Source: Escherichia coli (lineage in GTDB: Bacteria; Pseudomonadota; Gammaproteobacteria; Enterobacterales; Enterobacteriaceae). From it: DNA of 64,000 bases. The notes beneath the pieces are model-generated. The model saw only the letters and a list, made by a program, of their open reading frames with translations, did not search any database and was not told the origin of the DNA. The DNA lies in the NCBI RefSeq assembly GCF_045037415.1, contig NZ_CP173438.1. One strand, written 5' to 3'. The translations under genes were made by a program, and so were the position numbers. Shown here piece by piece: positions 26,774-63,552 of the stretch; position 1 is the stretch's first letter, and every line of letters begins with the position of its first letter.

Positions 26774-26964
26774 TGCGAGTCCTCCCTGTCAGGGCGGGAG
26801 AATTCCATGACGGGCACGTCTGCCGAAAAATGCTGGCTGCAGTACGGGCAGACCAGGGTGACGCGTACCGCAGGGATGTGGTATTTACCGGACATCACGG
26901 CGATGGCGCTGTGAAAACGCAGGGCTGTTATATCCCTCTCGCACTGAATACATTTAAATATCAT
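26770..26964 (-). CDS. Small zinc-ribbon protein (64 aa)
   Basis: CxxC (CIQC) and CxxC (CPYC) pairs 35 residues apart. Confidence 0.4.
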   Translation of the reverse strand: MIFKCIQCERDITALRFHSAIAVMSGKYHIPAVRVTLVCPYCSQHFSADVPVMEFSRPDREDSQ

Positions 26965-27061
26965 GATTTAATTCTCCTCTGTTTCCGGCGTGCAGAAGCC
27001 CGCGGCGCTGACGTCGGAATAAAAAAGAAAATGTTTTTATTAAATAATTAACGTGGTGTGT

Positions 27062-27592
27062 TTACTGCACATCCTGCTCAAAAGGAATTATTGAAAAATC
27101 CTCAATGTCGCTTTTAATGGAAATACCGGGAATATTTTTCACGGCCTCTTTTTCATTCAGGATAGCGTCTTTATTTATTTCCTCTTTTACACGAATAAAG
27201 CGCTCAAGCCCCAGACGTCTCAGTAATTCAATAACATTATCCGCCCCACGGATACTGACTGATGGCGGACGGTTTCGCCACTGCACCTCGCCGGTGGTGA
27301 GGTTAGCGAACTTCACCTTCCCGTTGCCGGTCAGTTCATCACGGTGTGCCTCACACCATGTCTGAATACCGGACTGCAGTTCGGCCATGCGTTTTTTCAG
27401 GCTCTCGGTGAGCGGGGCATAACGTGCGGTGATATCGCCAATGGCGTCATTCATTTCTGTTTCAGCCCTGACCAGTTCACGTTGTGCGTCACCGAGTAGT
27501 CTGATTCCCTCAATGACCTCTTCACGTGTCCCCGGCACCCAGAGTGCTGCTGCGGCCTTGATACGTTTTGCACCTTTTGTACTTTTTGCCAT
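27062..27592 (-). CDS. gam: Host-nuclease inhibitor Gam (Mu Gam-like)
   Basis: 176 aa; strong similarity to recalled Mu Gam over its length (ETEMNDAI..., WCEA.RDELT..GKVK.ANL.TG.V.WR.RPPSVSIRG, DFSIIPFEQ). Confidence 0.75.
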   Translation of the reverse strand: MAKSTKGAKRIKAAAALWVPGTREEVIEGIRLLGDAQRELVRAETEMNDAIGDITARYAPLTESLKKRMAELQSGIQTWCEAHRDELTGNGKVKFANLTTGEVQWRNRPPSVSIRGADNVIELLRRLGLERFIRVKEEINKDAILNEKEAVKNIPGISIKSDIEDFSIIPFEQDVQ

Positions 27593-27619
27593 TTTTTATG
27601 ATTTCTCCAGTTGTGCTGA

Positions 27620-27889
27620 TTACCACAAAGATTCCGGCCACACGACGCGACAGCCGTGCAGTTCGAAAACGCCCTGACGGAAATATCCCCTGTGGTCATG
27701 TCCGGTATACAGATAACAGGCCTTTCCCTGCTCAAGCATGCGCATGCAATGCGCACTCCGGGAAACGCGGATGACAGGTTTGTTACCCCTGATGGTGATG
27801 CTTTGTACATCCGTGTTCGTCGCCTTAAGCGCCATAATGGCTGACTGCACTTTGCTGATTTGCTGGTTGATACCTGTGGTGGATTTCAT
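27620..27889 (-). CDS. Hypothetical early protein in the Kil position (89 aa)
   Basis: Between MuB-like gene and gam; Cys/His-rich; no confident family. Confidence 0.35.
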   Translation of the reverse strand: MKSTTGINQQISKVQSAIMALKATNTDVQSITIRGNKPVIRVSRSAHCMRMLEQGKACYLYTGHDHRGYFRQGVFELHGCRVVWPESLW

Positions 27890-27891
27890 TA

Positions 27892-29097
27892 TTAAACCCC
27901 TTTGACAACGTCAGCGTTGACCTGTGGAACCCCGATTTCAGCGGCCAGATTCATGGCGGCTATTACCAGGTTACTGACGGCCAGCGGATACAGCAGGCTG
28001 ACCATATTTTTACGGTGACTTCCCGGATTGCTCAGGCGGGCACGTATGGCATCCACTGCACCGGCGTCCATAATGTCCGTCAGCTGTTTACCGGCCCGTT
28101 GCAGTTTGAACGTCAGAAATTCTTCAAGGTTATTGTCCAGAGGCAGAAGTTCGACCACCTCACAGCGCTGAACGACTTCACGGACTTCCATATTGCGTTC
28201 AGACAGTTTTGTCGCCAGTTCCGGCTGGCCAATCAGCACGATGGACAGCAGTTTTTTGAAACCGGACTCCAGCTCAAAAAAGCGTTTGAGGTGTTTCAGT
28301 GTCGGAATGGGCAGACTGTGGGCCTCCTCAATCACCAGAACGTGGCTGAACCCCGCCTGGCTGCTGTCTTTCAGGACGCGATGCAACTGGCGAAAACGGG
28401 CGTCCTGACTGCGTCTGATGCTTTCCAGTGGTGCGATGGTACTGATAATGGCTTCGGCAATAGCTGCTGCCTTCAGGGTTTTCCCTTTCACATCGTTGTC
28501 TTCCATAGCGATGATGTATGGCTCGATAACAATTACCGGCGCATTCTCGCGGTTGATACGTTCAGTCAGGTCGCGGCGCAGCGTGGATTTACCCGCACCG
28601 GACTCACCGATGACGGCCATAAACCCACCATGACGGGCTGTCTGGTACAGCGCCTCACGCACGTAGCGAATGTCCGGGGTGGTGAACACATCATCAGAAC
28701 CCTGCATGGCTTCGTCGGCGAACGGGTCACGGAAAAGACCAAACGCTTTTTTGGTTGCTGGAAATAACACCTGTTTTTTGAGTAACATATTCTCTTCCTC
28801 ACTGAGGCTCGTTTTATCTGTGGTACCCGCTGTACGGGGCGTGGCCGCGCCCTGTACAGCATCAAAACTCTTCGTTGTATCAATCCCCTGACTTTCCAGC
28901 CAGGACGCAAGACGCCGGCGCACTTCTCCGGGGCTGGTGCGGGGCCACGCGTTATGATTCACAATCTGGGCCAGCGTGGCCTCAGAAACATCGACAGCTC
29001 TCGCCACCACCGCCTGTGGAATACGGGCCTCTTTCAGTTGCTGCTTCAGTACCAGCATGTTTCCCTCCTCAGTTGCCGTTAACAATGCTGATAACAC
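27892..29097 (-). CDS. Transposition ATPase (MuB-like, AAA+)
   Basis: 401 aa; N-terminal HTH-like region; Walker A VIGESGAGKST; Walker B-like VLVIEEAH; immediately downstream of transposase. Confidence 0.65.
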   Translation of the reverse strand: MLSALLTATEEGNMLVLKQQLKEARIPQAVVARAVDVSEATLAQIVNHNAWPRTSPGEVRRRLASWLESQGIDTTKSFDAVQGAATPRTAGTTDKTSLSEEENMLLKKQVLFPATKKAFGLFRDPFADEAMQGSDDVFTTPDIRYVREALYQTARHGGFMAVIGESGAGKSTLRRDLTERINRENAPVIVIEPYIIAMEDNDVKGKTLKAAAIAEAIISTIAPLESIRRSQDARFRQLHRVLKDSSQAGFSHVLVIEEAHSLPIPTLKHLKRFFELESGFKKLLSIVLIGQPELATKLSERNMEVREVVQRCEVVELLPLDNNLEEFLTFKLQRAGKQLTDIMDAGAVDAIRARLSNPGSHRKNMVSLLYPLAVSNLVIAAMNLAAEIGVPQVNADVVKGV

Positions 29098-30838
29098 TGC
29101 TGCGGGCCGGTGTGGTCAGCGTGGCCATGACTTCATCCAGTGCGGCTTCCGGTACGCCGTCCGGGTACTGTGCCGTTAACTGGCGGTAATGTTCCGGCGT
29201 CCAGGTAAGGCCGTCGGCGCTGAACTTATCGCGCAGGGCTTTCGCGGCCTCCACATGAGTCATGGGACGTTGTTCAGTGCGCGGCCCGCGTACGTCAGAG
29301 GCCTGACCACGCTTCGGCATATAGGCCGGAAGTGTGGTGTCGTCGATATGTTTATACGGGTCAAGCCGCCCGCCGAACGGCAGCGCCTTCGCCTTGCGTG
29401 CGGCGGCTGCATCTGCGGCGTTGTCTGTACCGGTAACCAGCGCTTCGGTTTCTTTTGCCGCCATCTGTGCCGGGGTTTCCGGCAGGGCTTTGTAACTTTC
29501 GCCAAATACCGCCGCGCCTTCAGCAAAGCCAAACTCGTTCTTTCTGACCTCTTCGACCAGGAAGAACGTCTCGTGGCCGTCCTCACCGGTCAGAACCACC
29601 TGTGCCACATCGCTGCGCCATGGGTTACGGGTAATCATCAGTTTTTCACCAACCAGTACGCCCGGTACCGTTGATACGTCAAATTCAGTGCCCCGGAACG
29701 AGACACGAAGTTTTGGCGTGACTTTGCGGAGTTCTGGTGCCGCCACAGCCAGTTCACGACATACCTCAACGGAAGGCGCTTTTTTCAGCTGCTCAGCAGT
29801 AATCTTCAGCCAGATATCCGTGCGGGTTTTACCGTGGCGGCTGTGAACAGCCGTGGCGTTAAAGTGGCTGCGCCATTTCGCGGCCAGCGCGTTGAGTTCT
29901 TCCAGACTGTGAACCGGCCGGAACTTCAGACCCGGCTCCAGCTTGCGTTCGATAATGTCACGCGCCTTTTCCACCTGTCCGGTGGCGCGGGCGTTATGCG
30001 GCTTGTGCGCTATCAGGTCGATGCCCAGTGAGCGGCACATGTTTTTCGTCATACCCGCGGTGTTTGCCGAGCCGGGGTCGAGATAGAGTATTTTCGGCAC
30101 GCCGTGCAGCACGTCTGCGCCGCCACGCTCCTGCATGGCGTTGATAAGCACAGAACACAGGTTCTCACCTGATTCCGCGCCCGTCACATACTCAACGTAA
30201 ATCCAGCCGCTGGCATGGTCGGTAATCTCGTAACTCCACACGCGGTCACTGGCGATACGGGCAAGGTTAGCGGGCTTGTTCTTGTAGAACTTCGCGCTGT
30301 CCATCACCTGCAGCCCTTTATGTCCATTGCTCAGGTAGTAAAGCGTGCAGAGTGAGGCGTCAATCTGCCAGACATGATTGGGATGCAGACTGGCCACTTC
30401 GGTATGTGGTGCAGGGGCATCCAGTTGTTCCGGGTGCAGGCCATAGTTACGCAGAGCACGGCTGATGGCATCTTCAGACAACGGGAAAAACTCACTGGTG
30501 GTTTCATCTGTTCTGCCTGCGGTGATAAAGCCGTTAGCCCGCAGGGTTTCCACTGCATCTGCGATGGAATAGAGACGCTTACCGTTCTTGCGGGTGGCCT
30601 CACGCAGTGTGGCAGATATCAGCGCGGCTTCGTCGCGGGTCAGGGCGCTGCGCCCGGCATCGGCGCGTTTTTTGCGTTTATCAGTCACAGATACCTCCTT
30701 CAGCCTGCGCAGCAGAGTGGCGCGGGACATGCCAAGTTCAGCACAGGCAGCGTCGTATATTGCACCGCGTTTACCATGCCCCGCGTCACGTGCCGCGCGG
30801 GCTGTTTCAACCAGTTTTTCAGTCAGTGCCGGGGTCAT
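29069..30838 (-). CDS. DDE transposase (Mu A-like, rve/integrase core)
   Basis: 589 aa; N-terminal HTH; catalytic core HVWQIDASL...YLDPGSANTAG...ATGQVE consistent with D,D,E triad. Confidence 0.8.
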   Translation of the reverse strand: MTPALTEKLVETARAARDAGHGKRGAIYDAACAELGMSRATLLRRLKEVSVTDKRKKRADAGRSALTRDEAALISATLREATRKNGKRLYSIADAVETLRANGFITAGRTDETTSEFFPLSEDAISRALRNYGLHPEQLDAPAPHTEVASLHPNHVWQIDASLCTLYYLSNGHKGLQVMDSAKFYKNKPANLARIASDRVWSYEITDHASGWIYVEYVTGAESGENLCSVLINAMQERGGADVLHGVPKILYLDPGSANTAGMTKNMCRSLGIDLIAHKPHNARATGQVEKARDIIERKLEPGLKFRPVHSLEELNALAAKWRSHFNATAVHSRHGKTRTDIWLKITAEQLKKAPSVEVCRELAVAAPELRKVTPKLRVSFRGTEFDVSTVPGVLVGEKLMITRNPWRSDVAQVVLTGEDGHETFFLVEEVRKNEFGFAEGAAVFGESYKALPETPAQMAAKETEALVTGTDNAADAAAARKAKALPFGGRLDPYKHIDDTTLPAYMPKRGQASDVRGPRTEQRPMTHVEAAKALRDKFSADGLTWTPEHYRQLTAQYPDGVPEAALDEVMATLTTPARSSVISIVNGN

Positions 30839-34172: not shown

Positions 34173-34388
34173 TTATCCGGGGCGATTTTCTGACCTTATC
34201 CGGTCCAGGGCATAAGTAATACCTTCTGCAAAAACAGAAGTATCAAACTGCTTTTGTATTCCCTGAAAATGAAAAGCGGCACGACAGACACTCAGTTCTC
34301 CGCGGTATAACCGGATAATATCTTCCAGAACATTGTTCACTGCTTCAGCACGGCGCTGATGTTCTGTTAACGTTAATCGGGGATTCAT
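34173..34388 (-). CDS. Hypothetical small protein (71 aa) in cargo module
   Basis: ORF only; its start overlaps the start of the divergent 134-aa ORF, so one of the two may be spurious. Confidence 0.25.
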   Translation of the reverse strand: MNPRLTLTEHQRRAEAVNNVLEDIIRLYRGELSVCRAAFHFQGIQKQFDTSVFAEGITYALDRIRSENRPG

Positions 34389-34791: not shown

Positions 34792-35495
34792 GGTTTATCC
34801 GCTGTCTGCATAATCCCGATAGCCAGTGCGAGGGGAAGTAATTCCGGGGAAACTCTTTCAAACAGCGATGCCCATTCTCCTCTCGCCATCACTCTGTCCA
34901 GCCCGCCCTCCAGTTGCATTTCAGCAATCTTCCTGATTTCCCGGAACAACGCCGCTTTGATCTCTTCATGCTCAGCTTTATTTTCCGGTGTCAGAAGGTA
35001 TTCGTCGAAGAACCGGGGAGGCTGGTTAATCGGGATGTGTTCCTGTTTGCCGTACTTCGGGGACGAACAACATTCTGTTGACTGACCAGTGAGTTTACGT
35101 AACTCCTTCATGAGCAGCTCCTGATCGTAAACTGTCATCAGTGCCGCAATGGTGGCATGCAGTGCATCGGGCAGTATCCAGGGTTGCCGGCCCGTGGGGC
35201 ATATAACATCCAGCAGCTCATTCGTCCGACAGATACGCTCCTCGCCGTATGACAACAGGCCCTGTCCCGTGTATTCCTCCAGCCTGATCACTGTGCCAGC
35301 CCGTGGTTTCTGCCATGTGCTCAGATCATCCCCACTCATACGGCGCTCACCGTCCACGTCTGCGGCGTCGACAATGACGCTGTTTCCGAATTCCTGTTTC
35401 ACCACTTCCTCTATTCGCGCCAGTACGTAACTTTTACCGCTGCCCACAGGACCGGACACGGTGACAGTGATGACCGGATTCAGTGTCTGCGTCAT
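34767..35495 (-). CDS. P-loop NTPase-like protein of unknown function (242 aa)
   Basis: Walker A VTVSGPVGSGKSY at N-terminus; remainder unrecognised. Confidence 0.45.
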   Translation of the reverse strand: MTQTLNPVITVTVSGPVGSGKSYVLARIEEVVKQEFGNSVIVDAADVDGERRMSGDDLSTWQKPRAGTVIRLEEYTGQGLLSYGEERICRTNELLDVICPTGRQPWILPDALHATIAALMTVYDQELLMKELRKLTGQSTECCSSPKYGKQEHIPINQPPRFFDEYLLTPENKAEHEEIKAALFREIRKIAEMQLEGGLDRVMARGEWASLFERVSPELLPLALAIGIMQTADKPHLRSLNT

Positions 35496-49504: not shown

Positions 49505-52456
49505 ATGTCGGGACAGTTTTCAGTCGGCGTTGTTATCGGCGGGATGATTGGCAGCACATTCCGTTCTGCAATGAGCGGTACCCGCCGTGCGCTTGATTCC
49601 CTGAGCGATACCTCACGCCGCCTGCAGGAACGTCAGAACGCTTTAACCCGTGCAACAGAACGTTATGGTCAACTGGGTTCTTCCCGGATGCAGCATCTCA
49701 ACAGCGAGCTGCTGCGGGTAAGCCGCACCATGGAGCAAATTGAGCGCCAGCAGCGCCGTCTGTCAGCGGCATCCGCTACCAGTGATGCGCTGAAAGCTAA
49801 CCGCATGGCGCTGTATGGTCAGGGGATTGAAGCGTATGGCATGGCACAGACTGTTTATCATACGGTTTCCCCTGCCGTTCAGCAGTCCATGTCTTTTCAG
49901 GACAAAATGATTGATATGTCGATCACCGCAAAATATGACAATAAAACGCGGGATGCACTTGCCGGACAGATAAAAGGCTGGGCGCTTAAATACAATCAGT
50001 ATCAGGATGAGCTGCAGGAGGCGATGGGTTCACTCATCAGCGACAATATTGATAATGTGTCAGATATCGGTTTTCTGATGCCGGATATTGCCCGCGCGGC
50101 AACGGCAACACGCACGTCTGCTCAGGACTGGGCAAAAGTGGCCGCAGTCTGGCAAAACTCCCTGAAAGGCGCGGCCAGAGATTTTGGTGCCGTTCAGAAT
50201 ATTATGGCTTATGCCGGTGACCAGGGGTCATTTGAAATCCCGGATCAGGTCAAGTGGATGCAGTCCCTGGCCCCAATGATGGCGGGTATTGCCAGTGGAA
50301 AAGAGGCTGTTGCTGAAATCGGGGCCAGTCTCCAGATAGCAAAAATCGGTGCAGGTTCCACCGACGAAGCAGCCAATAATTTTAAAAACTTTCTTACCAA
50401 AATTTTTGCCCGCGATACTCAGAAACAGTTTGCTGATCTGGGTATTGATTTGCAGGGATCTATTGCGAGTTATAAAGCTGCGGGGATCTCTCCGATTGAA
50501 GGGATGTTGAGTGTTATAGAACGTTACCTCAATGCCAAAAGCCCCGAAGCGCTGGCCGGCTTCAAATCAGCCATGAAAATAAAGAATGATACGGCAAGAG
50601 ATGAGGCACTTCAGGCTCTGGCGAAAAACTTTGGTCTGGGCGATATGTTCGCGGATATGCAGGTCATGGCATTTATCCGCCCGATGCTGGCCAACATGGA
50701 CAGATATCGAGAGATCCGTGCCGGTGCTCTCAGGGCTGCGGATAACGATTTGCTTGCCAGTGCTTATGATCAGCGGCTGAAATCTCCCCTTGAAGCCACT
50801 AAAACACTTATGGTCAGCAGTCGCGATCTGGCAATTACGCTGGGCGATCAATTAGCTCCATCTTTTATTTCTCTGACTCAGGACTTGCTCCCACTCATTC
50901 AGGGGACAAAACACTGGGTGGCGACTCACCCGCAATTTGTCAGTGGGGCTTTTAAGCTCATCAGTGCGCTCCTTGCGATTAAGATAGCGACTGTTGGTCT
51001 CAAACTGGGGCTGAATCTCCTTATTTCCCCCTTTGTGAACGTCTGGAAAACTGCTGTTTTACTCCGGACCAACTGGCATCGACTGACTACCGCACTCGGA
51101 GAAGGTGGCAAATTACGCTGGCTTGTCACTGGATTCAGCCGACTGACCAGCGGAGGACTGAAACTCAGCAAAGTTCTGGCGGGCAGCCTCGTTCGCGGTT
51201 TTATGAGCGCTGCACGTGCCGTTCTCTGGATTGGGCGAGCGCTGATGATGAATCCCATCGGTCTCGTTATCACCGCTGTCGCGGCAGCAGCTTACCTTAT
51301 CTACCGCAACTGGGGGGCAGTCAGTGGCTGGTTTAAACAGCGCTGGGCTGACATTCAGGAAGCCTTTAACGGCGGTATCGCGGGAACTGGTAAGCTGCTG
51401 ATTAACTGGTCGCCGGCAGGCCTGCTCTATAAAGCCTTTGCGGCTGCGCTGAAATATTTCGGCGTTACTCTGCCGGCAAAGTTCACCGACTTCGGTGGCC
51501 ATCTTATCGACGGTTTGATTAACGGTATCAAAAACAAATGGGGGTCGCTCAAATCCAGTGTAACCGGAATGGGTGACAGCATCAGTAGCTGGTTTAAACA
51601 ATGCTGGGCTGACATTCAGGAAGCCTTTAACGGCGGTATCGCGGGAACTGGTAAGCTGCTGATTAACTGGTCGCCGGCAGGTCTGCTCTATAAAGCCTTT
51701 GCAGCTGCGCTGAAATATCTTGGTGTTGATCTGCCGGCAAAGTTTACCGACTTCGGTGGCCATCTTGTCGATGGTCTGATTAACGGTATCAAAAACAAAT
51801 GGGAGTCGCTCAAATCCAGTGTAACCGGAATGGGCGACAGCATCAGTGGCTGGTTCAGCGAAAAGCTGGGCATTCATTCGCCGAGCCGCGTGTTTATGGG
51901 CTTTGGTGACAATATCGCGCAGGGGGCCGCCATTGGCCTGCAGCGGACCACTCCGCTTGCAGCTCTGGCCGGGCAGCGAATGGCCAGTGAACTGCTCCCC
52001 AGAATGCCCGTGAGCATTCAGGGGCCAGAAATACGGGATAACACTTCAGGTGTTCGCTTCAGTATGCCGTTGCCCGATATCAATGGGTTTATGTCGTCTG
52101 CTAAAAATGCGATCGGAGCCGTAATCAATAGTTTGTCTTCCATGCCCGCTATTCCGCTCTCCACCCGGGCATCGATTTTACCAGGGCAACGTCTGGCAAA
52201 TGAGATGACACCGGATGTTCCCCGTATCCCCTCGCCTGAAATCCTGGCTGCCGGATATTCAGGCCGTGGTGCAGCTGCAACCGGCGGTGGAACGTCTGGT
52301 GGTATCCAGGTCAGCTTTAATCCTCAGTTTTTCCTCAATGGCAGGGAAACCACAGCGCCTGCAGGACTGACTGGTGCCCTGAATATGAGTCTGCATGAGC
52401 TGGAAAAAATGCTGGAGCGTCTGCTGGCTCAGAAACAACGTAAGGAGTACCGCTGA
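49505..52456 (+). CDS. Tail tape measure protein
   Basis: 983 aa; largely helical, internal repeats; located between chaperone and baseplate genes. Confidence 0.8.
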   Translation: MSGQFSVGVVIGGMIGSTFRSAMSGTRRALDSLSDTSRRLQERQNALTRATERYGQLGSSRMQHLNSELLRVSRTMEQIERQQRRLSAASATSDALKANRMALYGQGIEAYGMAQTVYHTVSPAVQQSMSFQDKMIDMSITAKYDNKTRDALAGQIKGWALKYNQYQDELQEAMGSLISDNIDNVSDIGFLMPDIARAATATRTSAQDWAKVAAVWQNSLKGAARDFGAVQNIMAYAGDQGSFEIPDQVKWMQSLAPMMAGIASGKEAVAEIGASLQIAKIGAGSTDEAANNFKNFLTKIFARDTQKQFADLGIDLQGSIASYKAAGISPIEGMLSVIERYLNAKSPEALAGFKSAMKIKNDTARDEALQALAKNFGLGDMFADMQVMAFIRPMLANMDRYREIRAGALRAADNDLLASAYDQRLKSPLEATKTLMVSSRDLAITLGDQLAPSFISLTQDLLPLIQGTKHWVATHPQFVSGAFKLISALLAIKIATVGLKLGLNLLISPFVNVWKTAVLLRTNWHRLTTALGEGGKLRWLVTGFSRLTSGGLKLSKVLAGSLVRGFMSAARAVLWIGRALMMNPIGLVITAVAAAAYLIYRNWGAVSGWFKQRWADIQEAFNGGIAGTGKLLINWSPAGLLYKAFAAALKYFGVTLPAKFTDFGGHLIDGLINGIKNKWGSLKSSVTGMGDSISSWFKQCWADIQEAFNGGIAGTGKLLINWSPAGLLYKAFAAALKYLGVDLPAKFTDFGGHLVDGLINGIKNKWESLKSSVTGMGDSISGWFSEKLGIHSPSRVFMGFGDNIAQGAAIGLQRTTPLAALAGQRMASELLPRMPVSIQGPEIRDNTSGVRFSMPLPDINGFMSSAKNAIGAVINSLSSMPAIPLSTRASILPGQRLANEMTPDVPRIPSPEILAAGYSGRGAAATGGGTSGGIQVSFNPQFFLNGRETTAPAGLTGALNMSLHELEKMLERLLAQKQRKEYR
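51328..51849 (+). repeat. Near-perfect tandem duplication (2 x 261 bp) inside tape measure gene
   Basis: Unit starting ctggtttaaacagcgctgggctgacattcaggaagcc at 51328 recurs at 51589; encodes SWFKQxWADIQEAFNGGIAGTGKLLINWSPAGLLYKAFAAALKY... twice. Confidence 0.85.
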
Positions 52457-57354: not shown

Positions 57355-58688
57355 TTATGGGAAACCTGAATGAAACAGAAAAGTGGGAAGAAAATATCTA
57401 TCAACTGGAGACATCAGATCCGGTTCTGGGTGGTGCAGACGGGATATCAAATCGAGCCCCCCGGCAACTGGCAAACAGGACGAAATGGCTGAAGAAGAAA
57501 ACGGAGGAAGCCGCACAGTCACTGGCTGAACACGTACGTTCCCGTAACCACCCGGACGCGACACTGACAGCTAAGGGGTTCACCCAACTGAGCAGTGCCA
57601 CCAACAGCACCTCTGAAACGCTGGCCGCCACACCAAAAGCGGTCAAGGCTGCATACGACCTGGCAGCCGGCAAGGCGCCTGCCAGCCACACTCACCCGTG
57701 GAGTCAGATAACGGGAGTGCCTGCGGCTTCACTGACGGCAAAAGGCACCGTACAACTGAGCAGCGCCACGGACAGTCAATCAGAAACTGAGGCTGCCACG
57801 CCGAAGGCGGTCAAGGCTGCATACGACCTTGCAGCCGGCAAGGCGCCCGTCAGCCACACTCACCCGTGGAGTCAGATAACGGGAGTGCCTGCTGCCTCGC
57901 TGACGGCAAAAGGCACCGTACAATTGAGCAGTGCCATCAACAGCACGTCTGAAATACTGGCCGCCACACCGAAAGCGGTCAAGGCTGCATACGATCTGGC
58001 AAACGGAAAACAACCGGCAGATGCCACGCTCACTGCTCTGGCAGGACTTGCCACTGCAGCAGATCGGTTGCCTTATTTTACCGGAGCAGACCGCGCAGAG
58101 CTGGCAACCCTTACAGCTATTGGTCGCGCTATTATCGCTAAGGGCAGTATAAAAGATGTCCTCAATTACCTTGGTTTAGGAGAAGGCTCGGCGCTACCCG
58201 TTGGTGTGCCTGTTCCGTGGCCCACCGCCACACCGCCAGCAGGCTGGTTAAAGTGCGACGGGCGCGCCTTTACAAAAGAACAATATCCTGTTCTGGCCAG
58301 AGTCTACCCGACCCTCCGTCTTCCCGATTTACGCGGTGAGTTTATCCGTGGATGGGACGACGGGCGCAAAGTTGATACAGGACGTAAGTTGCTGTCCGCA
58401 CAAGGGGCAACGCTGTTAAGAACAGCAATGCTGGATTATTATAACCAGGACACTACGGGAACCTCGGGGATAGTCGGCATGGGATTCAACAATGAAGATT
58501 CCATTACAGACCTTCGTGAGGGCAGCTTTAAAATGCCGGACGGGACAACATTCAGCGATCCTGTCGTGGCAATGTCAGACAATGGTATGCAGGCTACTAT
58601 TCTGACCTCTATCAGAAGCGGGTATGCGAAGGGTATCACTGTCAGACCCCGTAGCATTGCACTTAATTACATTGTGAGGGCAGTTTAA
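57351..58688 (+). CDS. Tail fibre protein (constant N-terminal part fused to variable C-terminal cassette 1)
   Basis: 445 aa; three tandem fibre repeats (TAKG.QLSSAT.S.SE..AATPKAVKAAYDLA.GK); C-terminal part homologous to the two inverted cassettes. Confidence 0.8.
   Translation: MIMGNLNETEKWEENIYQLETSDPVLGGADGISNRAPRQLANRTKWLKKKTEEAAQSLAEHVRSRNHPDATLTAKGFTQLSSATNSTSETLAATPKAVKAAYDLAAGKAPASHTHPWSQITGVPAASLTAKGTVQLSSATDSQSETEAATPKAVKAAYDLAAGKAPVSHTHPWSQITGVPAASLTAKGTVQLSSAINSTSEILAATPKAVKAAYDLANGKQPADATLTALAGLATAADRLPYFTGADRAELATLTAIGRAIIAKGSIKDVLNYLGLGEGSALPVGVPVPWPTATPPAGWLKCDGRAFTKEQYPVLARVYPTLRLPDLRGEFIRGWDDGRKVDTGRKLLSAQGATLLRTAMLDYYNQDTTGTSGIVGMGFNNEDSITDLREGSFKMPDGTTFSDPVVAMSDNGMQATILTSIRSGYAKGITVRPRSIALNYIVRAV
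57561..58005 (+). repeat. Three tandem copies of about 50-aa tail-fibre repeat
   Basis: Protein-level repeat seen directly in the translation. Confidence 0.7.
58160..58185. other. Candidate invertase crossover site 1 (gix/hix-like)
   Basis: TCCTCAATTACC-TT-GGTTTAGGAGAA; right half-site complement TTCTCCTAAACC resembles Gin/Hin half-site TTCCTGTAAACC; at constant/variable junction of fibre gene. Confidence 0.55.
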
Positions 58689-59302
58689 TGAGTAACACTG
58701 CAGTTCTGGATGAAAACGGTATCGCCACTGTAGCGGGCGATATCACTGTATATCACTATGACGAGGAAACCCGGGAATACACCTCATCCTCTGTGGAGTA
58801 TCTCGCCCTTGGGGTGGGTACTCCGGCACATTCGTGCGCCGATGCACCGCCGGAAGCAATTTCGGGTTACGTGGTTTGCCGGACTGCCACGCTGAACGGG
58901 TGGGAGCATGTGCCTGATCACCGCGGCGAGACGGTATACAGCACGGAGAACGGTAACCCCGTTCTGATTACCCAACCGGGTGATTACCCGGCGGACACCA
59001 CCACAAAACAGCCAGCCACGCCATGGGATACCTGGAACGGTGAGGCGTGGGTAACCGATACTGAACGGCAGCGAGCCGCAGAACTGGAGGTTGCCAGACA
59101 GCAACGCCAGCAACGGGTGAAACAGGCGATGGCGTCCGTCGATCTTATCAACCTCAAACTGCGTGCTGGTCGCAGTCTGAAACCAGAAGAAACGGCAAAA
59201 CTGAACGCCGTGCTGGATTATATCGACGAGCTGAACGCACTGGATATCAGCAAGGCACCTGAAATCAGCTGGCCGGAAGCGCCACTGGCGCTTGCCGGCT
59301 GA
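58688..59302 (+). CDS. Tail fibre assembly protein (putative)
   Basis: 204 aa; ATGA-coupled to fibre stop. Confidence 0.5.
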   Translation: MSNTAVLDENGIATVAGDITVYHYDEETREYTSSSVEYLALGVGTPAHSCADAPPEAISGYVVCRTATLNGWEHVPDHRGETVYSTENGNPVLITQPGDYPADTTTKQPATPWDTWNGEAWVTDTERQRAAELEVARQQRQQRVKQAMASVDLINLKLRAGRSLKPEETAKLNAVLDYIDELNALDISKAPEISWPEAPLALAG

Positions 59303-59308
59303 ACGGTA

Positions 59309-59770
59309 TCACGCCGCCCTCACGATATAGTTAAATGCGATATTGCGGGGGCGAGCTGATACATAAGCCCACCAGTCATATCTTTGTGCACCTTTAGAGG
59401 ATGCATCAAATATCCACTTTTTGCCATTTAAGACCCCCAGTTGATTAGAGGTTAAAGCGTCACCAAATCCGTATTGTGTAGAGCCGAGCGAACTGATATC
59501 TCCGGTATCATTATCATCAAAACCGGATACGATAGTCCCTTCCTGAAATGAAAGTAGCGCACGCCCGGTATCAACCTTGCGACCACCGTCCCATCCACGG
59601 ATAAACTCACCGCGCAAATCGGGAAGACGGAGGGTCGGGTAGACTCTGACCAGAACAGGATATTGTTCTTTGGTGAACGTAGCTCCGTTGCACTGTAACC
59701 AGCCTGCTGGCGGTGTGGCGGTGGGCCATGGAACCGGTACACCAACAGGCAATGCAGAGCCTTCCCCCAA
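59309..59770 (-). CDS. Alternative tail-fibre C-terminal cassette 2 (inverted, promoterless)
   Basis: 153 aa; begins GEGSALPVGVPVPWPTATPPAGWL..., ends RPRNIAFNYIVRAA, both matching the resident fibre C-terminus; starts at crossover site 2. Confidence 0.6.
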   Translation of the reverse strand: MGEGSALPVGVPVPWPTATPPAGWLQCNGATFTKEQYPVLVRVYPTLRLPDLRGEFIRGWDGGRKVDTGRALLSFQEGTIVSGFDDNDTGDISSLGSTQYGFGDALTSNQLGVLNGKKWIFDASSKGAQRYDWWAYVSARPRNIAFNYIVRAA

Positions 59771-59787
59771 ACCAACGTTTCTATGCC
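59762..59787. other. Candidate invertase crossover site 2 (inverted relative to site 1)
   Basis: TTCCCCCAAACC-AA-CGTTTCTATGCC. Confidence 0.5.
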
Positions 59788-60209
59788 GCCCTTACGATGT
59801 AATTAAACGCAATGTTACGGGGACGAATGGTCACATAATTAACCCCATCGCCTCGCGAAGGACCTGCAAATGAAAAACGGGAGAATCCAGGTTGGTTGTC
59901 AACGATTTGGTCATAGTTATTGATTGAATGACCAGACCCAATGTCAAAATTACCTGCGTAATGAGAAAAACTTGTACCATCCTGCCGTGAAAGCAGATCG
60001 CGCCCTGTATCCACTTTTCGCCCGTCGTCCCATCCACGGATAAACTCACCGCGTAAATCGGGAAGACGGAGGGTCGGGTAGACTCTGGCCAGAACAGGAT
60101 ATTGTTCTTTTGTAAAGGCGCGCCCGTCGCACTTTAACCAGCCTGCTGGCGGTGTGGCAGTGGGCCACGGAACAGGTACACCAACGGGCAGCGCCGAGCC
60201 TTCCCCCAA
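59781..60209 (-). CDS. Alternative tail-fibre C-terminal cassette 3 (inverted, promoterless)
   Basis: 142 aa; first 70 residues nearly identical to the resident variable part; ends RPRNIAFNYIVRAA. Confidence 0.6.
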   Translation of the reverse strand: MGEGSALPVGVPVPWPTATPPAGWLKCDGRAFTKEQYPVLARVYPTLRLPDLRGEFIRGWDDGRKVDTGRDLLSRQDGTSFSHYAGNFDIGSGHSINNYDQIVDNQPGFSRFSFAGPSRGDGVNYVTIRPRNIAFNYIVRAA

Positions 60210-60227
60210 ACCAACGTTTATCTCTCA
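60202..60227. other. Candidate invertase crossover site 3 (same orientation as site 2)
   Basis: TTCCCCCAAACC-AA-CGTTTATCTCTC; immediately upstream of invertase gene. Confidence 0.5.
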
Positions 60228-60280: not shown

Positions 60281-60853
60281 ATGCTGATTGGCTACATACG
60301 TGTGTCAACAAATGACCAAAACACAGATTTGCAACGCAATGCATTAATGTGCGCAGGATGTGAACAGATTTTTGAGGACAAAATGAGCGGAACCAAGTCG
60401 GAACGACCAGGCCTGAAACGCGCTTTAAAGTGCCTTAAAAGAGGGGATACATTGGTGGTCTGGAAGCTGGATCGGTTGGGTAGAAGAATGAAACACCTCA
60501 TTGCTCTCACAGAAGAGCTACGCGCAAAAGGTGTCAATTTTCGCAGTCTGACGGATTCAATCGATACCAGCACTCCGATGGGAAGGTTCTTTTTTCATAT
60601 GATGGGTGCACTGGCAGAAATGGAGCGTGAACTGATAGTTGAGCGCACGCTGGCTGGACTGGCTGCTGCGCGAGCACAAGGAAGAGTTGGAGGACGTCGC
60701 CCGAAACTGACGAAGGAGCAGCATGAGCAGATCGCAAGATTGCTCCAGAAAGGGTATGACAGAAAGCGGCTGGCAATTATCTATGATATTGGACTGTCAA
60801 CGATCTACCGCTATCACCCTGTTGGGACTGTCATAACGCAACCTGAAATGTAA
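60281..60853 (+). CDS. Serine-recombinase DNA invertase (Gin/Hin/Pin/Cin family)
   Basis: Within ORF 60152..60853; ATG at 60281 after SD aaaggga; N-terminal MLIGYIRVSTNDQNTDLQ with catalytic Ser; C-terminal HTH. Confidence 0.85.
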   Translation: MLIGYIRVSTNDQNTDLQRNALMCAGCEQIFEDKMSGTKSERPGLKRALKCLKRGDTLVVWKLDRLGRRMKHLIALTEELRAKGVNFRSLTDSIDTSTPMGRFFFHMMGALAEMERELIVERTLAGLAAARAQGRVGGRRPKLTKEQHEQIARLLQKGYDRKRLAIIYDIGLSTIYRYHPVGTVITQPEM

Positions 60854-60910: not shown

Positions 60911-60931
60911 CATTTATCGCGCGGCGCATCA
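60911..60931 (-). repeat. Prophage right terminal inverted repeat (reverse complement TGATGCGCCGCGCGATAAATG)
   Basis: Ends in CA at 60931; a second GCGATAAATG-like motif at 60888..60897. Confidence 0.6.
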
Positions 60932-60937
60932 TTCTTC
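60932..60937. repeat. Right copy of target-site direct repeat (ttcttc), overlapping displaced ycaL start codon
   Basis: 60932..60939 reads ttcttcat; on minus strand this is ATG AAG AA, i.e. ycaL codons 1-3. Confidence 0.6.
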
Positions 60938-61108
60938 ATGTGAATCATCCGTTGATTAATTATATATAAACATTATGTATCAACAAGTTACATTGATAAT
61001 TAACGCTACCATTAATAAAAATACCCCACAAGGTCCGAAAAAAAACGCCGGCAATGTGCCGACGTCTTTGAAAAGAAAGGATTGTCTATGTTATCGCCCG
61101 TTATTCAT

Positions 61109-62393
61109 TCAGCCGGGTTGACTTATCCGCGCCAATTGCTCGAAATAGTCTGGAAAAGTTTTAGCGGTACATTTTGGATCAAGAATCGTCACAGGCGTAT
61201 CTGATAATGCGACCAGCGAGAAACACATCGCCATCCGGTGATCATTATAAGTGGCGATCTCAGCAAATTTCAGTTTTTCCGGTGGCGTAATGCGAATGAA
61301 ATCATGCCCCTCTTCGACTTCCGCACCGACTTTACGCAGTTCTGTTGCCATCGCAAACAGGCGATCGGTTCTCTTTAACACGCCAGTTATAGATATTGCG
61401 CAGCGTGGTGGTGCCTTTTGCAAATAACGCCGCGGTGGCAATGGTCATCGCCGCATCGGGAATATGGTTCATATCCATATCAATGGCGTTCAGTTCACCA
61501 CGCGTGCAGGAAATATAATCATCGCCCCAGCAAATGGTCGCGCCCATTTTTTCCAGAACATCAGCAAAGCGAATATCACCCTGCATACTGTTGCGTCCAA
61601 TGCCGGTCACTTTTACAGTGCCGCCTCTGATTGCTGCTGCTGCCAGGAAATAAGAAGCCGAAGATGCATCGCCTTCAACCAAATAAGTGCCCGGAGACTG
61701 GTAAGACTGCCCCCCTTTTACGACAAATTGTTGATAGTGCTGATTTTCAATTTCAACACCAAACGTCTTCATCAGATTGAGGGTGATATCGATATAAGGT
61801 TTAGAAACCAGATCGCCTTTAATACGAATCACCGTATCTTCCGGCGCAAGAGGCGCAGTCATTAACAGTGCGGTGAGGAACTGGCTGGAAACGGAGCCAT
61901 CAACATCAACGTTGCCGCCAGTAAAGCCGCCCTGTAAACGCAATGGCGGATAATTTTCTTGTTCCAGGTAAGTGATCTTCGCCCCGCCCTGGCGCAGCGC
62001 ATCCACCAGATGACCAATCGGGCGTTCTTTCATTCGCGGTTCACCGCTCAGTACAATATCATTGCTACCCAGGCAAAGTGCTGCCGCCAGCGGACGCATT
62101 GCCGTTCCGGCGTTACCGAGGAACAACTCCCGGGCACTTTCTGCGTGTAATGGACCACCGTTACCGATAATTTCGCAACGCGTACGATCGGCTGAAAGCG
62201 TATAGCTTACCCCTAACGCTGTTAATGCATTCAGCATATGGCGCACGTCATCGCTATCCAGCAGATTGGTTAATACTGTTTTGCCGTGTGCTAATGCCGC
62301 CAGCAATAAAGCGCGGTTAGAAACGCTCTTGGAACCGGGCAGATTAATAGTGCCATCGACACGAGCGATGGGTTGTAACGTTAGGGATTCCAT
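61109..62393 (-). pseudogene. aroA: aroA (EPSP synthase) with internal +1 frameshift
   Basis: N-terminal 353 codons (61332..62393) read ...NIYNWRVKE then go out of frame; AroA sequence resumes as [16 protein letters not shown]... in ORF 61109..61441. Consistent with a 1-bp insertion at the GGTT at 61367..61370. Confidence 0.75.
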
Positions 62394-62463: not shown

Positions 62464-63552
62464 TTAGCCGTGACGACGTTCGAACTCAACCATGAAGTCT
62501 GTCAGTGCTTTAACACCTTCCAGCGGCATGGCGTTATAAATAGACGCACGCATTCCGCCGACCACTCGGTGACCTTTCAGCGCATGTAAGCCCGCAGCGA
62601 AAGACTCTTCGAGGAACAATTTATCAAGCGCGCTATCCGCCAACTGGAACGGCACGTTCATCCGCGAACGGTTAGCTTTCGCCACATCATTGCGGTAGAA
62701 ATCGCTGTTATCAATCACCCCATACAGCAGTTCTGCTTTTTGCTGATTGATCTTATCCATTGCAGCCACACCGCCGTTCGCTTTCAGCCATTTGAAGACC
62801 AGGCCAGATAAGTACCAGGCAAATGTCGGCGGCGTGTTGAACATGGAATCGTTATCGTTGAGGATGGAGTAATCCAGAATCGATGGGCAGGCGATATTCG
62901 CTTTGCCCAGCAAATCTTCACGAACGATGACGATTGTCAGGCCAGCCGGGCCGATATTTTTCTGCGCGCCAGCGTAAATTACACCATAACGGCTGACATC
63001 AATCGGACGGGAAAGAATGGTTGAAGAGAAGTCAGCGGCGACCACCACGTCTTTACCGAAGTCTGGTGTTTCATCGATAGCGATACCATCGATGGTTTCG
63101 TTCGGGCAGTAATGCATATAAGCAGCATTATCAGAGAGTTGCCATTCACTCATTGGCTTAACTGCGCGAAGACCATCAACGGTCACTTTCGCATCAAACA
63201 CATTTGGTGTGCAGTATTTTTTCGCTTCTTTGATAGCACTTGCTGCCCAGTAACCCGCATCAACATAATCTGCAGTGGTTTTATCACCAAGAATATTCAA
63301 CGGTACTGCAGCAAATTGACCGCGACCACCGCCATGGCAGAACAATACTTTGTAGTTGGAGGGGACGTTAAGAAGATCGCGAAAATCCTTCTCGGCTTCC
63401 TCTGCAACCTGAATGAACTCTTTGCCACGGTGACTCACTTCCATCACCGACGTACCAAGACCGTTCCAGTCGCGCAGTTCCTGTTGAGCCTGTTTAAGCA
63501 CCTCTGCCGGTAGCATTGCCGGACCAGAACTAAAATTGAAGATTTGAGCCAT
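62464..63552 (-). CDS. serC: Phosphoserine aminotransferase SerC
   Basis: 362 aa; [26 protein letters not shown]; class V aminotransferase; serC-aroA order. Confidence 0.95.

Follow-up and report, generated by a model that had tools for sequence, protein, structure and literature searches.

The aroA gene in the 64,000-nucleotide stretch of Escherichia coli DNA analysed here (the window) is disrupted as written by one extra base, and this frameshift, although correctly observed in the sequence, is most probably absent from the organism. We consider it likely that the extra base is a consensus error left uncorrected in an assembly of long reads, probably nanopore reads only, and that the aroA gene of the living strain is intact and functional. 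An error of this kind is favoured because the extra base duplicates the methylated adenine of a GAGACC site that abuts a Dam site, and because the insertion is private to this sequence while both the gene and the window are otherwise pristine. Most of the probability that we assign to an artefact is carried by this methylation mechanism, according to which the source assembly was presumably built from methylation-sensitive long reads, the strain presumably carries the restriction-modification system RM.EcoMI, and the methylation-linked error would have taken the form of an insertion. Before the methylation evidence was considered, mutation and error had appeared about equally likely, given that the long homopolymers of the window are correct and the insertion sits at a lone A.

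An earlier note on this DNA had described a single-base insertion frameshift in aroA, and alignment to EC958, SA186 and JJ1887 bears this out, with one extra A directly after codon Glu341, so that the coding strand reads GAGAACC where the three relatives have GAGACC (Table 1). Translation agreed with the same note that AroA reads normally to ...NIYNWRVKE, then shifts frame and stops 12 codons later. The resulting ATG-started ORF on the minus strand encodes 353 amino acids, of which residues 1-341 are AroA. The number of native C-terminal residues left out of frame, previously put at 75, has to be raised to 86 (Thr342-Gly427); the native C-terminus lies in another frame that continues to the normal stop at 61109 (ORF 61109..61441). 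Across serC-aroA, alignment to relatives gave zero substitutions and a single indel, which is the extra A.

Table 1. Positions of the aroA lesion, its surroundings and the second private change, counted from the first base of the window.
Feature	Position	Strand	Basis or remark
aroA (EPSP synthase gene), disrupted as written	61109..62393	-	Alignment to relatives
5' ORF: 341 native AroA residues, 12 out-of-frame residues, TAA	61332..62393	-	ORF translation
Extra base: coding strand AA (plus strand TT), against a single A (T) in relatives	61369..61370	-	Alignments to EC958, SA186 and JJ1887
Displaced native frame: codons Thr342-Gly427 and stop, 86 residues	61109..61369	-	Identical to relatives
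Dam GATC (61363-61366) abutting GGTCTC, written as GGTTCTC (61367-61373)	61363..61373		Motif position analysis
serC, upstream of aroA, intact	62464..63552	-	Alignment; identical to relatives
C>T (plus strand), Met503Ile in ycaI (ComEC family)	18326	-	Only other private difference in the window

Removal of one base from aroA restores the 427-residue ST131 allele WP_000445240.1, a protein found on at least 1000 contigs in the protein collection. In profile searches, the repaired protein covered positions 1-412 of the 415 positions of TIGR01356, the AroA equivalog, and it aligned over residues 1-426 to PDB 1G6S with the same numbering. The 353-residue ORF as written, on the other hand, matched the profile at positions 1-328 only, and the last 80 residues of the displaced frame (Met347-Gly427) corresponded to positions 335-413. 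As written, the locus does not encode an uninterrupted polypeptide of about 427 residues over the whole EPSP synthase profile (TIGR01356 / PF00275). The C-terminal residues Arg344, His385, Arg386 and Lys411, which we take from structural work on PDB 1G6S to be substrate-binding residues of EPSP synthase, all fall outside the as-written frame, being lost after Glu341, so that the ORF does not qualify as a functional class I EPSP synthase. A promoter and terminator scan of the aroA region revealed nothing relevant.

Sequence comparison places the window in E. coli ST131 clade C, with EC958, JJ1886, JJ1887 and 81009 among the clade C genomes that match it best. Only two positions in the entire 64,000 bases separate it from JJ1887, the aroA insertion and the C>T in ycaI. 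The 81 bases around the insertion were matched at 100% in 0 of 5,426 complete E. coli genomes, and those around the ycaI change in 0 of 5,398. While the ComEC protein with Met503Ile had one exact public occurrence (XKM74098.1 / WP_404999084.1), the truncated 353-residue AroA product had no exact copy among about 15 billion predicted proteins, and an exact search with the 110-residue overlapping ORF likewise gave no independent sighting of the insertion allele. An exact 25-mer scan placed the insertion allele on zero metagenome contigs, which carries little weight given that the wild-type control was found on 14. Besides aroA, no gene in the 64 kb was disrupted relative to relatives. The C>T in ycaI may genuinely mark the strain or be another consensus error; none of the seven ST131 methylation motifs tested includes it. 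A 3-bp difference at window position 34258, in a prophage intergenic/short-ORF region, is peculiar to EC958 rather than to the window: EC958 carries two GTA units in a row (GTAGTA), the window and most other ST131 genomes only one.

A 37-kb Mu-like prophage, corresponding to EC958 prophage Phi2, lies between aroA and ycaL (window 23887-60930); its products include a DDE transposase, Gam and Mor, along with a DUF935 portal, a contractile tail and a Dam-like methylase. The insertion, which follows the third ycaL codon and is accompanied by a duplication of 5-7 bp (GAAGAAT overlap), leaves the original ycaL ATG and promoter on the aroA side at about 60931-60939, and in relatives ycaL is annotated with a new start inside the phage end. 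Window positions 39001-64000, which include the right-hand part of the phage, were at least 80% present in at least 197 complete genomes. The prophage also contains an invertible tail-fibre segment similar to the Mu G segment (58168-60214), adjoined by a Gin/Pin-type recombinase gene (60281-60853); its 214-bp inverted repeats (58168-58381 / 60001-60214) are 96% identical and flank alternative tail-fibre ends and assembly genes. JJ1886 carries this segment in the orientation opposite to that in the window, EC958 and JJ1887. An ISEc23 element (IS66-family) is inserted in the JJ1886 prophage at the equivalent of window positions ~35405-35430 (JJ1886 locus 26863-29279); it is absent from the window, EC958 and JJ1887, and carried by several other ST131 genomes. 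Within the tape-measure gene (49505-52456), an internal direct repeat (51303-51855) consists of two copies of about 292 bp, offset by about 260 bp and 92% identical; part of the tail tape-measure protein has presumably been duplicated in tandem.

The extra base in aroA falls on a composite methylation site. Codons Glu341-Thr342 read GAG ACC, which is the Eco31I-type motif GAGACC, and the repaired plus strand at the site is GATCGGTCTC (61363-61372). The duplicated base is the m6A position of GAG(A)CC, that is, an m6A:T pair, and it adjoins the m5C:G pair. The methylome of EC958 showed that ST131 has an Eco31I-type Type IIS restriction-modification system, RM.EcoMI, on the island GI-leuX (PMC4659465); its genes in EC958 are EC958_0008 to EC958_0010. 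This system is identical to Eco31I and produces GAG(m6A)CC on one strand, with GGT(m5C)TC predicted on the other; the GAGACC adenines of EC958 were 100% methylated, and RM.EcoMI was present throughout except in clade B and a single clade C strain (PMC4659465). The composite site in ST131 carries m6A on both strands of GATC, a predicted m5C in GGT(C)TC, and m6A opposite in GAG(A)CC. The change in aroA thus lies on a methyltransferase-modified base, with the presence of RM.EcoMI in this strain taken from its clade. GAGACC/GGTCTC occurs 11 times in the window, and the aroA copy is the only one that abuts a GATC. A random position would fall on the m6A:T pair of a GAGACC site with p = 1.7e-4 (11 sites, 64 kb), and all modified base pairs of the six active ST131 motifs together make up about 1.4% of window positions, as derived from motif counts. 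Motifs of ST131 are GAGACC, GATC, CCWGG, CANCATC, AACN4CTTT and RTACN4GTG. As a separate observation, 11 sites in 64 kb compares with about 31 expected from length alone, a scarcity that may reflect avoidance of Eco31I-type sites or simply composition.

We propose that RM.EcoMI, by which GAGACC is expected to be fully methylated in ST131 clade C, would place m6A in GAG-A-CC and m5C opposite in GGT-C-TC, and that the aroA hexamer abutting the Dam GATC would yield a stretch of about 10 bp with four methyl groups across both strands. Basecallers untrained on this lineage-specific motif could misread the signal, and, with adjacent modifications on both strands, reads of the opposite strand would probably offer no rescue, so that a duplicated base could outlast polishing. 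Untrained lineage-specific motifs are documented to make nanopore consensus sequences err systematically, and polishing leaves such errors in place (PMC10687267; PMC11610573; PMC11610603). In R10.4.1-only E. coli assemblies, modification-induced errors are reported to be mainly C>T and G>A and strand-specific. Nanopore assemblies, even polished ones, are reported to retain about one substitution and one indel per 100 kb; the window, with one substitution and one indel in 64 kb, lies within this range, and its second private change is a C>T, the dominant class of modification error. The window therefore shares with the published modification-induced errors (Chiou et al. 2023, PMC10687267; Lohde et al. 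2024, PMC11610573; Liu et al. 2024 'Hammerhead', PMC11610603) a change on the modified pair of a lineage-specific motif, a clean remainder and a companion C>T. However, those errors usually recur over many copies of a motif, whereas in the window one copy out of 11 is affected, the Dam-abutting one.

Several further observations count against a methylation-induced error. Published modification-induced nanopore errors are overwhelmingly substitutions, and the indel counts of R10.4.1-only assemblies are reported to be comparable to those of short-read-polished ones. Given that nearly all published cases are substitutions, an insertion would be an atypical form of such an error; of the two private changes, only the C>T in ycaI has the typical form of a strand-specific C>T or G>A substitution, and the aroA insertion does not. 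Since the ten other GAGACC sites in the window are correct and error-free, the effect is also not systematic at the motif. The aroA site was read correctly in the five error-prone ST131 assemblies sampled, and the usual long-read signature is absent from the window, where 65 of 65 homopolymer runs of at least 6 bases agree with relatives. Finally, the ycaI change lies outside the tested motifs and may simply be real, in which case it would show the strain to be genuinely distinct.

The more familiar route to a false aroA pseudogene is a homopolymer error, which we characterized in ten public error-prone assemblies with the AroA C-terminus called as a separate gene. All aroA breaks in these ten were deletions in homopolymers (G6 at codon 227, A6 at 281, A4 at 325 and C3-4 near 87); in the same assemblies the downstream T8 run was too short, and breaks were usually present in serC and phage genes as well. 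Such false pseudogenes resemble the aroA of the window in that a single-base indel splits a housekeeping gene, which can then be flagged as a frameshifted pseudogene. They are, however, deletions in runs of at least four bases with many neighbours hit, in contrast to an insertion at a run of one. Homopolymer error is thus out as the cause of the insertion in the window, where the G6, A6, A4 and T8 runs are correct, the 65 long runs agree with relatives and the affected base is a lone A. Identical aroA homopolymer deletions recur over NCBI and Logan assemblies and give rise to false aroA pseudogenes, and an 80-residue 'hypothetical protein' (e.g., BDY93805.1) derived from broken aroA was found on 112 contigs.

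A real inserted base would mean that a +1 frameshift, private and very recent, had arisen in a patient or during laboratory passage and had truncated EPSP synthase after Glu341. We regard this as unlikely, though clearly the most credible of the readings that differ from a consensus error. The insertion at a lone base is unlike the homopolymer deletions, with their broken neighbours, of the ten error-prone assemblies; all 65 long homopolymers of the window are correct, and the ordinary missense transition in ycaI gives the strain at least a second private change. A real mutation would, on the other hand, have had to fall by chance on a methylated GAGACC pair (~2e-4), or on any known modified position (~1.4%), and we know of no mutational process that targets m6A. 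Its allele was in no other genome, protein set or metagenome searched, and literature searches turned up no ST131 strain with a frameshifted aroA or with auxotrophy, nor any report tying ST131 to aroA loss. Because extraintestinal E. coli that lose aroA are strongly attenuated, a real null allele would be selected against: aroA deletion blocks growth on minimal medium and raises the mouse lethal dose by orders of magnitude, so that clinical clones should be rare, and an aroA deletion mutant of E. coli K1 did not grow on M9 without amino acids and was highly attenuated in mice. If the mutation were real, the clone would make a product without AroA profile positions 329-415 and would be an auxotroph requiring aromatic amino acids, p-aminobenzoate, and the precursors of quinones and catecholate siderophores that derive from chorismate. 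A real insertion provoked by the restriction-modification system at one of its own sites, through slippage during adenine flip-out by the methyltransferase or through faulty repair after self-restriction, seems very improbable. Eco31I cuts outside its own site, and deamination of m5C leads to C>T, not to an insertion. Under such a process, an Eco31I-type site in a housekeeping gene would be a mutational hotspot giving rise to a natural aroA-null, aromatic-auxotrophic ST131 clinical isolate. Local templating by a repeat or quasi-palindrome was also considered and rejected, there being no inverted copy and, as the only direct match, 5 nt (AGAAC) located 29 nt downstream. Small-colony-variant wound isolates of ST131 (bioRxiv 10.1101/2022.05.07.487787) offered no parallel, as their lesion is a hemB deletion and involves no aro gene.

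Two further readings of a real insertion have hardly any probability in our view. In one of them, enough EPSP synthase would be restored by +1 ribosomal frameshifting, whether programmed or fortuitous, by transcriptional slippage, or by a restart of translation at Met347 with two fragments then assembling. In the native frame, the Met347 ATG does lie 17 nt upstream of the premature TAA, and an 80-residue product from Met347 is called as a gene in other, error-ridden assemblies, but two fragments would still be without Thr342-Ala346, Arg344 included. Recoding signals are, moreover, normally conserved, whereas the sequence at this site occurs in 0 of 5,426 genomes; it contains no slippery heptamer, no long A/T run, no stop-stimulated shift site and no Shine-Dalgarno-like element before Met347. 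A programmed frameshift or recoding site was accordingly discarded, as the site is unconserved and without slippery motif or upstream Shine-Dalgarno-like element. The other reading would have the lesion mark a lineage, either one derived from an attenuated aroA vaccine or a clone whose genes decay under host restriction, and it draws only on the general analogy made in the earlier note, which expected, if the insertion was real, an aromatic auxotroph as in such lineages. We found no support for that expectation: none of the 5,426 genomes shares the lesion, the window has the background of ordinary virulent ST131 clade C strains and is identical to JJ1887 save for two bases, no other gene is disrupted in 64 kb, the neighbours of aroA are intact, and aroA itself is without secondary decay. 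The first two of these observations already refute the lineage part of the reading. Engineered aroA strains (E. coli O78:K80 Poulvac, E. coli K1 E11 delta-aroA and Salmonella aroA vaccines) are deliberate deletions or transposon insertions in other backgrounds, and vaccine strains are defined deletions made by allelic exchange, as opposed to a one-base insertion. A defined deletion of aroA characterizes the poultry vaccine strain, and chickens have also yielded aromatic auxotrophs whose aroA is wild-type. If the base in the window were real, the outcome would nonetheless be the same as in the engineered strains, with no EPSP synthase, no chorismate, aromatic auxotrophy and attenuation. Like the aroA of the window, pseudogenes of Shigella and Salmonella Typhi include frameshifts in metabolic genes, but these are lineage-wide and accompanied by many co-inactivated genes and secondary mutations, whereas the lesion in the window is private and the only one in 64 kb. 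The possibility of a sequencing error, which the earlier note had offered as the alternative to a real mutation, is in this way favoured by the position of the extra base on a methylated GAGACC site, and a private mutation keeps a minor part of the probability.

Should the base prove real, a pandemic clone would have yielded a natural isolate that is aroA-null, a rare case and modestly interesting with regard to within-host adaptation and to small-colony or auxotroph phenotypes. If, as we favour, it is a consensus error, the strain is an ordinary prototrophic ST131, and its aroA 'pseudogene' should be left out when gene loss, auxotrophy or vaccine-like attenuation is studied. The motif GAGACC/GGTCTC, methylated in most of ST131 clade C, may then, where it abuts a Dam site, let a long-read consensus invent a frameshift in a near-perfect assembly, and matching private indels to the methylation motifs of the strain itself would be a cheap filter for false pseudogenes.
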